Positions 21,276-32,306 of a DNA stretch of 64,000 nt are shown piece after piece (the stretch's first letter is position 1; each line of letters opens with the position of its first letter). The notes beneath the pieces were generated by a model. It saw only the letters and a list, made by a program, of their open reading frames with translations, ran no database searches and was not told the DNA's origin. A program made the position numbers and the translations under genes. The DNA is from Thermodesulfovibrionales bacterium (GTDB lineage: Bacteria; Nitrospirota; Thermodesulfovibrionia; Thermodesulfovibrionales; SM23-35): positions 352,001 to 416,000 of the forward strand of contig CAVQRT010000007.1 of the NCBI GenBank assembly GCA_963715195.1, read 5' to 3'.

Positions 21276-22583
21276 ATGGCCTTTTCATCATTCAGAGGAG
21301 GAATACATCCTCCTGACAAAAAAGAACTTTCTTCGGAGAAACCGATCTCCGCGACAAAACCTCCGGCCCGGGTCATAATTCCACTCAGCCAGCATCTCGG
21401 GGCACCATGTAAACCAGTCGTCACGATGGACCAGAAAGTGAAAAAAGGAGAAATGATCGGTGAACCAGCTGGCTTTGTCTCGGCACCGGTCCATGCATCC
21501 GTATCAGGCGGGGTGATCGCGATCGGAGAATTCCTCAATGCAATGGGAAGGATGGTGCCTTCTGTTGTGATCGAAAATGATGGGAACGAGGAATGGTCAA
21601 TGCTGAAAGATCATCCTGATTATATGAACCTCTCACCTGATGAGATGAGAGAAAAGATCAGGAACGCCGGGATTGTCGGAATGGGAGGAGCTGCTTTCCC
21701 GACAGTCGTTAAGCTGTCTCCGCCTAAGGAAAAACCCATCGATACAGTTATTCTGAACGGTGCCGAATGCGAACCATATCTGACCGCAGATTACCGGCTG
21801 ATGCTCGAAAAACCATTCGAGGTTGTCGAAGGGCTTAAGGTGCTCATAAAGGTTTTGGGGGTTCAGAGGGGATTCATCGGTATTGAGAACAACAAGCCTG
21901 AAGCTGTAAAATCGCTTAAAAAAGCTGCCCAGGGAGAGAACTCTGTTGAGGTCTGCTCACTTCCTACGAAATATCCTCAGGGTGCTGAGAAGATGCTTAT
22001 TAAAACAATTACCGGCAGGGAAGTTCCCCCGAGGGCACTTCCGATGGATGTCAGGGTGGTTGTTCAGAATATCAGTACTGCAGTCGCTGTCTTTGAAGCG
22101 GTTCGATACGGGAAACCCCTCATAGAAAGGGTTGTAACCGTTACCGGAGAAGGCATTTACCAGCCAAAAAATCTTTTGACAAAAATCGGGACTCTGGTAT
22201 CACAGCTTATTGAGGATTGCGGAGGCATAAAAGGCGAAAATCTGAAGGTGATCTCCGGAGGACCGATGATGGGCTTTGCACTCTCTTCACTCGAAATTCC
22301 TGTTACGAAGGGGACATCGGGCATCGTCGTTCTGGCAGAGAGTGATATTGTGCATATGGAAAGTTTCGGGCCGTGCATCCGCTGCGGCAGGTGCATTGAT
22401 ATCTGCCCGATGGGTTTGATGCCCTCGATGCTCAGCATCTATGCAGAAAAAGGCTTCTATGAAGGAGCAAAAGAATACGGCCTGTTCGACTGTTTTGAGT
22501 GCGGTTCCTGTGCATTTGTCTGCCCGTCGAAAAGGCCGATAGTTCAGCTCATACGTCTCGCAAAATCACAGGTAAAACCATGA
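21276..22583 (+). CDS. rnfC: Rnf complex subunit C
   Basis: GIVGMGGAAFPT, NGAECEPY, YPQGAEK, two ferredoxin-type motifs. Confidence 0.97.
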   Translation: MAFSSFRGGIHPPDKKELSSEKPISATKPPARVIIPLSQHLGAPCKPVVTMDQKVKKGEMIGEPAGFVSAPVHASVSGGVIAIGEFLNAMGRMVPSVVIENDGNEEWSMLKDHPDYMNLSPDEMREKIRNAGIVGMGGAAFPTVVKLSPPKEKPIDTVILNGAECEPYLTADYRLMLEKPFEVVEGLKVLIKVLGVQRGFIGIENNKPEAVKSLKKAAQGENSVEVCSLPTKYPQGAEKMLIKTITGREVPPRALPMDVRVVVQNISTAVAVFEAVRYGKPLIERVVTVTGEGIYQPKNLLTKIGTLVSQLIEDCGGIKGENLKVISGGPMMGFALSSLEIPVTKGTSGIVVLAESDIVHMESFGPCIRCGRCIDICPMGLMPSMLSIYAEKGFYEGAKEYGLFDCFECGSCAFVCPSKRPIVQLIRLAKSQVKP

Positions 22584-22673
22584 TTAAATTCAAAACTGTT
22601 TTGTTCATTTGGAATTATGATTTGTTTAGCCGTTAGATATTTAAATTCAAGATTTAGACTCCTCATGTAATTT

Positions 22674-23669
22674 ATGGAAATTACCAAGAAACCATTTATT
22701 GTCTCGGTCAGTCCGCACATAAGAAGTGACGAGACAACGGCAAGGATCATGTGGAGCGTATCCGCTTGTCTGCTCCCAGCAGCAGTTATGGGAGCATACT
22801 TTTTCGGTCCCAGGGCAGTTTTGACTGTTTCGCTCTGCGTCATTGCATCAGTCCTCTCGGAACACCTGTATCAGAAGGCCCTGAAGAAACCGTCAACAGT
22901 CCGCGACGGCAGTGCCTTTCTTACCGGCCTTCTGCTCGGCCTTAATCTGCCACCTTCAGCGCCTTTTTACCTATCGCTGATCGGATCTTTTGTTGCAATC
23001 ATCATCACCAAACAGCTCTTCGGGGGACTCGGCTACAACATCTTCAACCCCGCCCTTATCGGAAGGGCATTCCTCGTAATCTCATTCCCAAAGCTAATGA
23101 CCGTGTGGAGCGAGCCGACTGCCGCATTCATTCTCCTTGACGCAAAGACCACGGCAACCCCGCTCGGAATTCTCAAAGAAGAGGGGCCTGCAAAGCTGAT
23201 ACAAGTCTTCGGAGATCAGCTAAACCTTTACGCCCAGCTTATTACCGGTCACAGAGCGGGTTCAATCGGAGAGACTTCGGCTGTTGCCCTTCTCATCGGT
23301 GCTGCATTCCTGCTTTATAAGAGATATATCACCTGGCATATACCTTTGTCCTTTCTCGGGACAGCTGCGGTGATCGCGTGGATAATCGGTGGAACGGATT
23401 CACTCTTTACCGGGGATCCCCTCCTGCACCTTTTCAGCGGCGGTATGATTCTTGGGGCTTTTTTTATGGCAACCGATTATGTCACGAGTCCTTCGATGAA
23501 AAGCGGCCAGATCGTTTTCGGAGCCGGATGCGGTTTTCTCACAATGCTCATCCGGCTCAAGGGCGGCTATCCCGAAGGGGTTATGTTCGCCATTCTGATC
23601 ATGAACGCTTTTGCGCCCCTCATCGACAGAGGATTTCAATCAAAATTCTTCGGGGCCGGAAAGAAATAA
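22674..23669 (+). CDS. rnfD: Rnf complex subunit D
   Basis: SPHI, FGGLGYNIFNPA, FMN site TTATPL, FMATDYVT. Confidence 0.97.
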   Translation: MEITKKPFIVSVSPHIRSDETTARIMWSVSACLLPAAVMGAYFFGPRAVLTVSLCVIASVLSEHLYQKALKKPSTVRDGSAFLTGLLLGLNLPPSAPFYLSLIGSFVAIIITKQLFGGLGYNIFNPALIGRAFLVISFPKLMTVWSEPTAAFILLDAKTTATPLGILKEEGPAKLIQVFGDQLNLYAQLITGHRAGSIGETSAVALLIGAAFLLYKRYITWHIPLSFLGTAAVIAWIIGGTDSLFTGDPLLHLFSGGMILGAFFMATDYVTSPSMKSGQIVFGAGCGFLTMLIRLKGGYPEGVMFAILIMNAFAPLIDRGFQSKFFGAGKK

Positions 23670-23684
23670 CCAGAGGGAGATACC

Positions 23685-24257
23685 TTGTCGGGAAAGGATA
23701 TACTGAAAATAACGTTTAACCTTGTTACAATCTATCTCGCTGGTGGATTAATCCTTGCACTCGTTTATGCAAAGACTTCACCGATCATGTACCGGAATGC
23801 TGTTCTGGAAAAGGAGAACGCCTTAAAAATGCTCATACCTGAAGCCGACAGCATTGACAAGCTGGGCGACTGGACGATTCATGACAAGCATGCAGAGTAT
23901 TTTGTCGCAAAAAAAGGAGATGCTGTCGCAGGGTACATTATCCAGTCATTCGGCAAAGGCTATTCAAGCTATATTAATACCCTCATTGCGGTCGATCCCG
24001 ATTTCAAAGTCCGGAAGATCAGTATCCTCGGTCATGCAGAGACACCGGGTCTCGGAGATGAGATTGAAGCAGAAAGCTTTCAGAACCAGTTCATTGGGAA
24101 AGGGCCGGACCATCTGACGGTATTGAAAACGGAGACGACAGACTACATTCAGGCAATTTCCGGAGCAACGATTTCAAGCAGGGCAGTTACCGAAGATGCG
24201 GTGAAAGCAGGACTCGATTTTCTCATAACCACCATGACAGATAAAAGCGAGGAATAA
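23685..24257 (+). CDS. rnfG: Rnf complex subunit G
   Basis: ETPGLG, FMN motif ISGATISS. Confidence 0.95.
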   Translation: MSGKDILKITFNLVTIYLAGGLILALVYAKTSPIMYRNAVLEKENALKMLIPEADSIDKLGDWTIHDKHAEYFVAKKGDAVAGYIIQSFGKGYSSYINTLIAVDPDFKVRKISILGHAETPGLGDEIEAESFQNQFIGKGPDHLTVLKTETTDYIQAISGATISSRAVTEDAVKAGLDFLITTMTDKSEE

Positions 24258-24874
24258 TGGTCCAGGGAGAAAAACCTGATTATATTGGGCTCATCAAAGA
24301 TGGCATTTTCAAGGAGAATACCATCTTCAAGCTTGCGCTGAGCCTGTGCCCTTCCATAGCGGTTACGAACAGTCTGCGGAATGGTGTTCTCATGGGAACC
24401 GCCGTCCTTTTTGTTCAGGTAATGGTCAACATTACCATTTCCATGATGAGAAATTTCATTCATCCGAGAATCCGTCTCCCTGTCTTCATGCTCGTCATTT
24501 CAGGGTGGGTCACGGTCACCGATCTGACCATGGCAGCCTTTGCCCAGGATGCATACAAGCAGATGGGTCTCTATATTCAGCTCATCGTTGCCTTTGCATC
24601 AATCCTTGCGCGCGCGGAAATGTTTGCGAGCAAGAACAAGATTGTTCCGTCCCTCTTTGACGGGATCGGGATGGGCCTCGGCTTTCTCTTTGCGCTCACT
24701 ATCATAAGTTTTTTCAGGGAGCTTCTCGGGAAAGGTTCACTGTGGGGTGTTCCGATTATCAACGCAAAGCCTCTCCTCATCATGATCCTCCCGGCAGGCG
24801 GCTTTTTTGCTGTCGGCATTTTGATGGGGTTTTTCAACTGGTTAGGTATGAGAAATGCTGGAAAAAGTCATTAA
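24257..24874 (+). CDS. rnfE: Rnf complex subunit E
   Basis: LSLCPSIAVT, IRLPVF, FFRELLG, ILPAGGF. Confidence 0.94.
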   Translation: MVQGEKPDYIGLIKDGIFKENTIFKLALSLCPSIAVTNSLRNGVLMGTAVLFVQVMVNITISMMRNFIHPRIRLPVFMLVISGWVTVTDLTMAAFAQDAYKQMGLYIQLIVAFASILARAEMFASKNKIVPSLFDGIGMGLGFLFALTIISFFRELLGKGSLWGVPIINAKPLLIMILPAGGFFAVGILMGFFNWLGMRNAGKSH

Positions 24875-25039
24875 TGCGATGCAGGGAATAGTGTTTGAGC
24901 GAATTTTCCTGCCGATAGTCAATTCATACTCAGCTCATAAAGATGCAAAAGCCTCGGAGTTTTCCGATCCCGAAATCATTCGGGACCGGGAAACGAGAAT
25001 GGGCAGCAATACGCTACCTTGCATTGAAGGAATGCGATA

Positions 25040-25627
25040 ATGGAATTTTGGAAACTTTTTGAATTGATTGTCTCAGCATCGCTGATTAATAACTTTGTGT
25101 TCACCCGTTTTCTAGGCCTCTGCATATTTTTTGGCGTCTCCCGGAGAATGGAAACAGCCATCGGCATGAGCATAACCTTCACGGTGGTGATGATGATCAG
25201 CGCAGGACTGAGCTGGCTCATTTTTCAGTACGTCATGATTCCCCTTGATATAACGTTTCTCAAGATTATCATCTTCATCGGTATTGTTGCCGGTTTTGTG
25301 CAGGCCTCAGACACCATCATGAGAAAAATCTCCCCGGGCCTTTATCACAAACTCGGCATATACCTTGCTCTGATATCTACAAATTGCATCATTCTTGCCG
25401 TTCCGCTGATTAACGCAGGGGAACAATACAGTTTTTTTGAAAGTCTTGCTTTTGCCCTCGGTTCAGGCCTCGGGTTTGCGCTTGCACTGATCATCATGGC
25501 AAGCATTCGCGAAAAGCTCGAACTCGCAGATGTTCCGGGTCCGTTCAGGGGAACACCGATCGCGTTTATCGTCACCGGCCTGATCGCCCTCGCATTTTCA
25601 GGCTTTGCAGGGCTTATAAAAATCTGA
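25040..25627 (+). CDS. rnfA: Rnf complex subunit A
   Basis: NNFVFTRFLGLC, LGIYLALISTNC, SIREKL. Confidence 0.96.
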   Translation: MEFWKLFELIVSASLINNFVFTRFLGLCIFFGVSRRMETAIGMSITFTVVMMISAGLSWLIFQYVMIPLDITFLKIIIFIGIVAGFVQASDTIMRKISPGLYHKLGIYLALISTNCIILAVPLINAGEQYSFFESLAFALGSGLGFALALIIMASIREKLELADVPGPFRGTPIAFIVTGLIALAFSGFAGLIKI

Positions 25628-25637
25628 TGGGGGGGAA

Positions 25638-26774
25638 ATGCTGACGGATATCCTTCAACTGTTGCACCTTCCCGATATCGTTCACTTTCTTGTTCCATAT
25701 GCCGGGGTCGGAGGCGGGGTTGAGGCAAAAGAACATGTGGCGTTAGCGCCGTTAATCAAATACACCCTCATCTTCCTCGCTGCTGTTGGAACCATATTCG
25801 GACTCGGGCTCGCGCTTGCCGCAAAAAAATTTTCTGTAAGGACTAATCCAAAGGTCGAGAAGGTCAAGGAAGTCCTTGCTCATGCTCACTGAGGGGCTTG
25901 CGGGTTCGCAGGGTGCGAACAATACGCGGAAGCAGTTGTCAAAAACCCTGAGGTCCCCCCGAATCTCTGTGTGCCTGCGGGAGCAAGAGGAGCGGAGACA
26001 ATTTCCCGTATCACGGGCAAGAAACCCGTGGCACGGGAGCCAATTTTTGCGCGGGTCATGTGTCAGGGCGGTTGGAGCAGATCTGCAAAAAAATTTGTTT
26101 ATGAGGGAGTTCAGGATTGCAGGGCGGTCATGCTCACCGGCGGTGATAAGGCGTGCAGATATGGATGTCTTGGTTACGGGACATGCGAGCGAGTCTGTCC
26201 GTTCGGTGCAATTACCATGACAGGCGATCATCTCCCCTTCGTCGATATTCAGAAGTGCACCGGGTGCAGAAAATGTGAAGCGGCCTGTCCGACACAAATA
26301 ATCGAAGTTCTTCCGGAATCGAAACAGGTTCTCATTGCATGTCATTCAAAAGACAAAGGTGCCGACACGAAAAGAAGCTGCGAGGTCGGATGTATCGCGT
26401 GCGGGATCTGTGCAAAAATTTGTCCGTTTGATGCACCTTCCATCAAGCATAATCTGTCCGGAATCGATCTGAATAAGTGCACCGTTTGTGGTCTCTGCGT
26501 TCCGAGATGCCCGACAGGAGCAATAACAGAATTTATTCCGCAGCGGCCGAAAGCATTCATTCTCAGTCATTGCACAGGCTGCCGGATATGCGCCGAAGTG
26601 TGTCCCGTGGATGCGCCTTCTGGTCAAGTGCACAAGCTGCACGTCATCGATACGACGAGATGCACCGGTTGCGGTATCTGTACTGTACATTGCCCGGTCC
26701 AGGCTATTGACGGAACATTCAATGTTACCGCGGTCTTTGCCGCTGCGGCACAAAGGAAGCAAGAAGCCGCATAA
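25638..26774 (+). CDS. rnfB: Rnf complex subunit B, 378 aa if in-frame TGA 25890-25892 is read through (probable selenocysteine)
   Basis: ORFs 25638-25892 and 25971-26774 share a frame; read-through gives AHAH-U-GACGFAGCEQYAEAV...NLCVP, then six ferredoxin-type motifs; last gene of rnfCDGEAB. Confidence 0.9.
25904..25920 (+). promoter_or_regulatory. Putative bacterial SECIS hairpin
   Basis: GTTCGCA-GGG-TGCGAAC perfect 7-bp stem; 18 nt separate the TGA from the G loop. Confidence 0.65.
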
Positions 26775-30964: not shown

Positions 30965-31079
30965 ATATGATCTATATAATACCCGAAACCTGCTTCAAAC
31001 TGCAGATATGTTTGCTCTGGTTTATTTTGAGATATGCTAAAATTACAAGAATGCCTGTTTTCAGCACAAAGAGCAGGAG

Positions 31080-32306
31080 GTGCATACTCTGATACGGTTT
31101 TATAATACCCTCGGAAAGAACCTTCAGACATTCCAGCCAGTGAGGAAACGCGTGGTGACCATATTCACCTGTGGTCCCTCCGTGTACCAAAAATCTCACA
31201 TCGGCAACTTTAGAACATTCCTGTTCGAAGACATTCTCTCGCGCTATCTTGCCTATGCCGGCTTTAAAGTCACGAGAGGCATGAATTTCACCGACATGGA
31301 AGATAAGGCAATCATCGAAGCGGCAAAGAAAAAGATTACGGTTCAACGCCTGACAGAGAACAATATAAAAGAGTTCCTCCGTACAATAAAACGCCTAAGG
31401 ATGCAATTTCCCGACTATCTGCCGAGGGCCTCTGAACATGTTGATGCTGCGGTCGCACTCATTCAAAAGCTGATCGAGCGGGGTATTGCTTATTGGCACA
31501 ACGGAAATGTGTACTATAATCCGTTAACATTTCCGGGATTCGGGAAACTCTATGGTCTCGATATGTCCCGTTGGCCGTTACAGAGAAAAAGATTCCACAA
31601 GGATACCTATCCCGGCCTGCAATGGAATAAAGGGGATTTCATTCTCTGGCACGGATACAAAAATGGCGACACCTGTTACCGGGATACAGAGATCGGCAGG
31701 GGCCGTCCATCATGGAACATTCAGGATCCGGCCATGGTCAGTCACTGCTTCCATGAGACCCTCTCGATCTATTGCGGAGGGATAGACAACCTCTATCGTC
31801 ACCATGACTACACAAAGGCAATCCTTGAATCAGTGAGACCCTACCCGATGGCAAAATTCTGGCTTCACTGCAATCATTTATATGTGAACGGAGAGAAGAT
31901 GTCGAAAAGCAAGGGCAATGTCATCCATGTTGATACGCTCATCAAGAGGGGTTTTAGCATGGATGAAATTCGGTTCTTTCTCATATACGGACATTACCGG
32001 CAGAAGCAGGACTACACGGACAGACTGATGAACCTGACGGCAATAAAACTGAGAATATTCAAGGAACTGGTTAAGAACATCAAAACAAAGGCCGGGCACA
32101 ATTGGGATTCTGCTGACAGGGTTCAGGGAATGTTCAGAAGGACTTTTGCTGAACATATGGATAATGACTTGCACGTCCAGGATGCTTTTGATGGGTTATT
32201 GCAACTATTGTCCGATATAAAGCTTCATTCATTAACCCCGGCAACTGCGAAGGGGATCATCAAGACCCTCAGAGAAATCGACAAAGTATTACAGGTTATT
32301 TTTTAA
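31080..32306 (+). CDS. Cysteinyl-tRNA synthetase paralog (atypical, short)
   Basis: YNTL, TCGPSVY, HIGN, NFTD, DFILW, KMSKS retained; WHIEC replaced by WNIQD; ends after the DALR-like helices; real start may be CTG 31089. Confidence 0.8.
   Translation: MHTLIRFYNTLGKNLQTFQPVRKRVVTIFTCGPSVYQKSHIGNFRTFLFEDILSRYLAYAGFKVTRGMNFTDMEDKAIIEAAKKKITVQRLTENNIKEFLRTIKRLRMQFPDYLPRASEHVDAAVALIQKLIERGIAYWHNGNVYYNPLTFPGFGKLYGLDMSRWPLQRKRFHKDTYPGLQWNKGDFILWHGYKNGDTCYRDTEIGRGRPSWNIQDPAMVSHCFHETLSIYCGGIDNLYRHHDYTKAILESVRPYPMAKFWLHCNHLYVNGEKMSKSKGNVIHVDTLIKRGFSMDEIRFFLIYGHYRQKQDYTDRLMNLTAIKLRIFKELVKNIKTKAGHNWDSADRVQGMFRRTFAEHMDNDLHVQDAFDGLLQLLSDIKLHSLTPATAKGIIKTLREIDKVLQVIF

Follow-up and report, generated by a model that had tools for sequence, protein, structure and literature searches.

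The window, a 64,000-nucleotide stretch of Thermodesulfovibrionales bacterium DNA, encodes at 31080..32306 (+) a paralog of cysteinyl-tRNA synthetase (CysRS) that belongs to a real, conserved and apparently uncharacterised family, the WN[IV]QD / RHHDY family, which by the features tested is neither CysRS, nor MshC, nor the CysRS* of Desulfobacterales. We tentatively favour the reading that it is a CysRS-derived accessory enzyme that would activate cysteine and transfer it to an RNA-like acceptor without reading an anticodon (the metal, the cysteine substrate, the RNA acceptor and any role in stress are what we infer). On this proposal an accessory class I enzyme that retains HIGN and KMSKS and has lost its anticodon domain would likely make cysteinyl-AMP at its predicted metal site (Cys31/Asp216/His241), and would then hand the residue on to an RNA-like, polyanionic acceptor held by a basic acceptor loop. 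That acceptor could be the end of a tRNA recognised independently of its anticodon, or a modified base in a tRNA, the kind of target used by Glu-Q-RS, which has no anticodon domain. More specifically, and more doubtfully, the family may cysteinylate RNA outside the genetic code, either at non-cognate tRNA ends (deliberate cysteine mistranslation) or on a modified base within tRNA, and so be a cysteine analogue of Glu-Q-RS (YadB). The latter, a class I paralog derived from GluRS, acylates tRNA at a site away from the 3' end (PMC9437257) and is invoked here as an analogy only. The table of CysRS paralog functions in that 2022 review holds CysRS* and MshC alone; a strictly conserved family that is neither, and that spans archaea and bacteria, thus probably represents a third chemistry, and the candidates are narrowed to a single soluble protein with cysteine first among substrates and RNA or another polyanion first among acceptors. 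In the full-text literature, with subscription journals mostly outside reach, we found no description of the family, although members might be present in the supplementary CysRS* alignment of PMC5389517 and paralog lists of PMC5388404, and the ESM Atlas returned generic CysRS and MshC clusters only.

The gene is a single intact open frame of 408 codons followed by TAA. Because the ribosome-binding-like AGGAGG at 31075-31080 covers the G of the GTG start, and because 83 of 121 sequences (the query plus its top 120 hits) show Met at aligned position 4, the start is probably CTG 31089, 8 bases downstream of the AGGAGG (the element as a whole is 31075..31091 (+)), giving a protein of 405 residues. 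A promoter scan of the locus gave matches at chance level and none upstream of the gene, and a metatranscriptome contig of 192 bases that spans 31752-31943 may be DNA and is not counted as expression. The query scores 244.7 bits against the PF01406 profile and 163.8 bits against TIGR03447 (MshC), for which the cut-off is 485.

The first-pass annotation had taken the protein for something other than the housekeeping CysRS and had proposed a search for a canonical cysS elsewhere in the genome. That view stands: the TIGR00435 score of 313.9 bits lies under the cut-off of 340, and a canonical 498-aa cysS with WHIECSAM and FPHHENEIAQ is found on another contig (C36), together with one tRNA-Cys(GCA) carrying U73 and one ordinary tRNA-Sec in the same genome. 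In the host class a family-level match occurs in 19 of 151 genomes, and all 19 show a second, weaker match of canonical-level identity, its motif having been checked only for the query genome. The paralog is scattered over Nitrospirota, Bathyarchaeia and Spirochaetota, and the five named carriers (one, two and two from these groups, respectively) all have a second, stronger PF01406 match with WHIEC. It is carried by 6/151 genomes of the Bathyarchaeia sample, each with a second match, one of them cut by a contig end, and by 1/61 of the Spirochaetota sample, the centre genome only; in no carrier genome checked was it the sole CysRS-type gene. A contig scan of genomes returned mostly canonical CysRS, with 5 family loci among the 80 matches listed, while at least 120 metagenome stretches match the family pattern and no viral sequence does. 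Among the matches listed, the closest one with a name, at 60% identity, comes from a Thermodesulfovibrionales record. As a side observation, many canonical cysS genes of the host class (L026-L036 and other class genomes) sit in stop-to-stop frames of ~700-750 aa, which may reflect a fusion or an upstream gene in the same frame, and by the tRNA cluster near cysS on contig C36 of the query genome a translation GTPase match, probably one tuf copy, lies in two frames (G000:C36:20738-21635; L262, L266).

The claim that the adenylation motifs and the first cysteine are kept was borne out: FTCGP (C31), SHIGN (H40-N43) and KMSKS (273-277) are all present in the 408-codon frame. HIGN is no degeneration, N being found at the same place in 85/125 canonical CysRS. 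The TCGPS element, which holds the metal ligand C31 and has S34 in place of the canonical T, lies with HIGN at 31167..31208 (+), and the intact KMSKS ATP loop at 31896..31910 (+). Residues were mapped by alignment to E. coli CysRS 1LI5, with an offset of 7 around the pocket motifs, so that C28 corresponds to C31; W205 to W212, H206 to N213, E208 to Q215 and C209 to D216 in the first part of the pocket (residues 208-219, GRPSWNIQDPAM), and P233 to R240, H234 to H241, H235 to H242, E236 to D243, N237 to Y244 and E238 to T245 in the second (residues 233-248, GGIDNLYRHHDYTKAI). This alignment confirmed the substitutions that had been reported at WNIQD and RHHDYT, C209D and E238T among them. At WNIQD (31713..31727 (+)) W212 is kept and the changes are H206N, E208Q and C209D; at GGIDNLYRHHDYT (31776..31814 (+)) query residues D236, H241 and H242 are kept and the changes are P233R, E236D, N237Y and E238T. 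The zinc ligands of CysRS are C28, C209, H234 and E238 (PMC7563103), of which the query retains two, as C31 and H241, and replaces the other two with D216 and T245.

These substitutions are features of the whole family. In an alignment of the query with its 120 best hits (60-99% identity, with no selection on motifs), C31, W212, N213, Q215, D216, R240, H241, H242, D243, Y244 and KMSKS are invariant in 121/121. A second set of 66 members, dereplicated at 70%, was chosen by WN[IV]QD, which makes the letters of that motif constant by selection; all 66 have S34, R240 and Y244 and keep C31, H40, N43, T71, K76, W212, D236, H241, H242 and M274-K276. Position 34 is T in 124/125 canonical enzymes, and position 245, which is Thr, Asn or Ser in 64/66 members, is Glu in 124/125. 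Five pocket changes (H206N, E208Q, C209D, P233R and E238T) are fixed together in the family, and three of them, H206N, E208Q and P233R, occur in 0/125 canonical enzymes. In a quick-search tree of 71 proteins, with midpoint rooting only and one MshC on a long branch, the family comes out as a single clade (SH-aLRT 100) that includes one additional, degenerate member. The neighbours of this clade are short proteins (~410 aa), the majority of which retain an intact zinc site, and beyond them lie full-length CysRS of the HIGN type; one near relative (P0164) is an intermediate with WNVQC/HHENT. With the same reservation about rooting, this order suggests that loss of the anticodon domain preceded the pocket changes. 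Both MshC, which is set apart by supported branches, and the genome's own cysS fall elsewhere in the tree. The degenerate member (P0185) sits inside the clade, its branch is long, and it has largely lost the catalytic motifs.

The protein ends at 408 aa, and the first-pass annotation had read from this that the anticodon-binding domain is apparently missing. The AlphaFold model (pLDDT 91.9, pTM 0.92) agrees: it superposes on residues 1-395 of the 461 of 1U0B (Z 48.0, rmsd 2.2, 385 aligned), and by this predicted structure the helical bundle (32016..32303 (+)) is present, ends at the place of E. coli CysRS residue 395 and is followed by no C-terminal anticodon-binding domain. The closest structures are CysRS 8QHP (TM 0.90) and MshC 3C8Z (TM 0.83). 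To judge by the sequences, the short C-terminal end is a family trait, the median number of residues after KMSK being 136 (111-151, n=199) against 203 (170-322, n=117) in canonical enzymes chosen by WH.EC and a length of 445-530, or taken from named loci. The paralog shares with canonical CysRS of the HIGN type (TIGR00435, PF01406; 8QHP, 1LI5/1U0B) the Rossmann-fold catalytic domain, CP1, the helical bundle, HIGN, KMSKS, C31, W212, H241 and H242; it differs in the missing anticodon domain, the changed pocket, the basic acceptor loop and in always being a second copy in the genomes checked.

What carries the RNA-like acceptor in our proposal is charge. Measured over one and the same span, the query's net charge is +21 and that of the genome's own CysRS -14, and the paralog is the more basic partner in 8/8 within-genome pairs. 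Median net charge is +18 for the family (120/125 above zero) and +10 for the metagenome loci (51/57 above zero), compared with -10 for canonical enzymes (21/184 above zero). The shift is largest in residues 151-190 (+4.7 vs -1.3), with conserved basic gains at 38, 164, 167-170, 174 and 240 and acid losses at 37, 215 and 245. Residues 164-183 of this region (RWPLQRKRFHKDTYPGLQWN; 31569..31628 (+)) form a CP1 acceptor loop that has been rebuilt with basic and aromatic residues and replaces the AGAR loop of the genome's own CysRS. In CysRS a CP1 loop with an MSGA motif reads the first base pair of tRNA-Cys (PMC5389517), and loop 164-183 would be its counterpart. The conserved Lys after DFxLW (K in 118/125 canonical enzymes) is also lost, with H191 in 60/66 members, and a tRNA contact may have gone with it. 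The basic shift suggests that a polyanion, RNA being the simplest case, is bound in a novel manner; net charge is a crude measure, and fits CoA, nucleotides and sugar phosphates as well as RNA. Nonetheless, because the family is so strongly basic and the gain is concentrated in the acceptor loop, we prefer an RNA-like acceptor over an amino sugar of the MshC type.

The CysRS* of Desulfobacterales (PMC5389517) is like the paralog a second cysS without an anticodon domain and with a changed CP1 loop, and it acts on RNA; it sits with selB* and selC*, and it is by gene linkage that the paralog is set apart from it. The selC*/selB* system was rejected, the genome having one tRNA-Sec (G73, G1:C72) and one selB over the cut-off, and no selB* or selC* beside the locus. 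A wider link to selenocysteine was also rejected, since selA, present in 144/151 genomes of the class, does not track the 19 carriers. No tRNA-Cys or tRNA-Sec was called in 104 family loci, and, as a point against an RNA acceptor, no dedicated tRNA or known RNA was found beside the paralog, 37 loci yielding 1 ordinary tRNA.

The alternative that survives best, itself unlikely, is that the enzyme works as MshC does, ligating cysteine to a small-molecule acceptor (an amine, a sugar phosphate or a CoA-like compound) to give a low-molecular-weight thiol or an exported metabolite. MshC (TIGR03447; 3C8Z) is also accessory to a canonical CysRS and also ends after the helical bundle, with 124 residues after KMSK in L082 compared with 136 in the paralog, and its HHEYS resembles HHDYT, each having HH, an acid, Tyr and a hydroxyl residue for HHENE. 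Against this, the paralog has a separate origin and is not sister to MshC in the tree, MshC keeps WHVEC and Pro, and the paralog is basic where MshC is acidic (-23 for L082, a single MshC; its host is high in GC, and acidic CysRS, at -11 and -14, occur in the host's phylum too). Flanked by a divergent TPR gene and a convergent PF0610-like gene, the query gene is on its own here, close to tyrS; in a genome of the same genus (G110) too, tyrS lies on one side of the paralog, with the HD and HEAT genes opposite. Of the 104 loci, ten were dropped where no family frame was called, and in the remaining 94 no neighbour is common to different lineages, but in favour of a small molecule a MATE transporter lies directly upstream in 17/94 loci (Nitrospirota) and a BCP-type peroxiredoxin in 15/94 (Bathyarchaeia). 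Within the host class MATE lies immediately upstream of the paralog in 13/18 other carriers, with changing flanks, and is present in 15/19 carriers vs 1/27 non-carriers, which are related genomes and not independent. This co-occurrence hints at a small molecule and against an RNA acceptor; on the other side, MATE has no match in the query genome. A link to the amino-sugar thiol pathways was rejected: the PIG-L deacetylase of the MshB/BshB step (PF02585), present in the query genome and in 8/9 carriers outside the host class, does not track the paralog (9/19 class carriers vs 9/22 non-carriers), and no glycosyltransferase-deacetylase block recurs beside the gene in the loci examined. Five fusion candidates of 715-2040 aa gave none at E 1e-30, which is weak evidence. 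The lack of both a biosynthetic partner across lineages in the 94 loci and a fused form fits a lone enzyme acting on a substrate that every cell has. Separately, in a second carrier group (L341:3149-4228, L342:5790-6878, L160, L195) the next gene downstream, in the same orientation, is DinB-like (IMS family).

The next alternative, which we also think improbable, is that the pocket now prefers a different amino acid, such as serine, homocysteine or oxidised cysteine, whichever kind of acceptor is used. The first-pass annotation had argued for a non-cysteine substrate from C209D and E238T; the conservation of those residues stood, and the argument itself proved weak, both changes having precedents in enzymes of the cysteine type. 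For example, MshC 3C8Z reads FPHHEYSAAH, with Ser at the place of E238 and Tyr before it, and its zinc is held by two Cys and one His. MshC ligates cysteine (PMC9437257, PMC2922099). As to C209D, WHIED enzymes that keep E238 (full-length or cut by a contig) are the sole PF01406 match in G157, G309 and G165, draft archaeal genomes of no given completeness in which SepRS was not found; in G309 a contig end truncates the gene. Since MshC lacks E238 and WHIED is the sole CysRS found in those three genomes, C209D/E238T is weakened as a sign of a new substrate. In favour of another amino acid, five simultaneous pocket changes are fixed in the family, a Cys/Asp/His metal site is a harder one, and no natural enzyme compared combines both C209D and E238 loss with H206N and P233R; the three changes absent from canonical enzymes may mean that the amino acid has changed. 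E. coli CysRS C28D and C28/209D mutants, moreover, lose translation activity, C209D alone going unreported in the relevant passages (PMC5660078). Against it, W212, C31, H241, H242 and T71 are kept. Because the ATP and amino-acid backbone residues are present in 66/66 members and cysteine-type enzymes offer a precedent for the loss of each missing zinc ligand, activation of cysteine is supported, and we take cysteine to be the likeliest single substrate. Other CysRS with Asp for the zinc ligand C209 were seen at L309-L311 and L308 and in P0167, P0198, P0226, P0243 and P0257, and C209D CysRS apparently serves as the housekeeping enzyme in some archaea.

A third alternative, and quite an improbable one, is a back-up enzyme for stress, which would load ordinary tRNA-Cys by way of U73 and the acceptor stem and whose metal site would better tolerate oxidation or a lack of zinc. 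It draws on the ability of U73 by itself to give minihelices cysteine identity (PMC9976931), on a CysRS variant without an anticodon domain that charged tRNA in E. coli (PMC5389517), and on the redox or stress genes among some neighbours (peroxiredoxin, rubrerythrin, Usp, Rrf2, Hsp20), though genes of this sort are common generally. It has to contend with a first-base-pair loop that is wholly rebuilt, with a paralog that is never the sole CysRS-type gene in the carriers checked, and with Zur-regulated CysRS paralogs that retain the zinc residues (PMC2770081). Slightly less probable still is a dedicated cysteine persulfide synthase or dinucleotide (Ap4A) synthase that has lost amino-acid transfer. 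The E. coli C28/209D mutants retained persulfide synthesis (PMC5660078), and the equivalents of E. coli K73, K266 and K269 (K76, K273 and K276), three of the four KxxK/KMSK lysines, are kept; the equivalent of E. coli K76, needed according to the same paper, is variable at query position 79 (E13, A9, K8 and Q7 of 66), as it is in canonical enzymes too, and either activity leaves the conserved new loop unexplained. That the gene is a decaying duplicate of cysS, as its patchy spread (19/151 class genomes) and two frameshifted metagenome copies (L129, L147) might suggest, has next to no probability and is refuted by the conservation data, the motifs being invariant across archaea and bacteria, third codon positions differing by 0.58 from the same-genus ortholog and first and second by 0.25, and the gene being, by the tree, no duplicate of the genome's own cysS.

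Natural Cys/Asp/His/Glu zinc sites in likely housekeeping CysRS, together with repeated loss of the anticodon domain, bear on the evolution of thiol selection. Two further short lineages were seen. The first (L298-L305, from G319, G312, G326, G368, G340, G354, G347 and G333) has frames of 386-421 aa, no anticodon domain, WHIQC, WHTEC, WHIEC or WHAEC with YPHHE, and an acidic to neutral charge; it is the sole PF01406 match in 5/5 genomes tested, with SepRS encoded in 6/6 tested. The second (L337-L339, from G266, G283 and G289) is a 409-aa accessory CysRS of Bathyarchaeia with WHIEDT and FPHHEAE, a full-length copy being found elsewhere in each genome. An anticodon-less CysRS as housekeeping enzyme was rejected as a candidate, all six short-CysRS genomes tested also having SepRS and four Bathyarchaeia short copies lying beside full-length ones. 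Elsewhere in the window, in what we take from its sequences to be an Rnf-like cluster (21276-26774), an rnfB-like gene at 25638-26774 is in two frames (84 aa, then 267 aa), through a frameshift or an assembly error.
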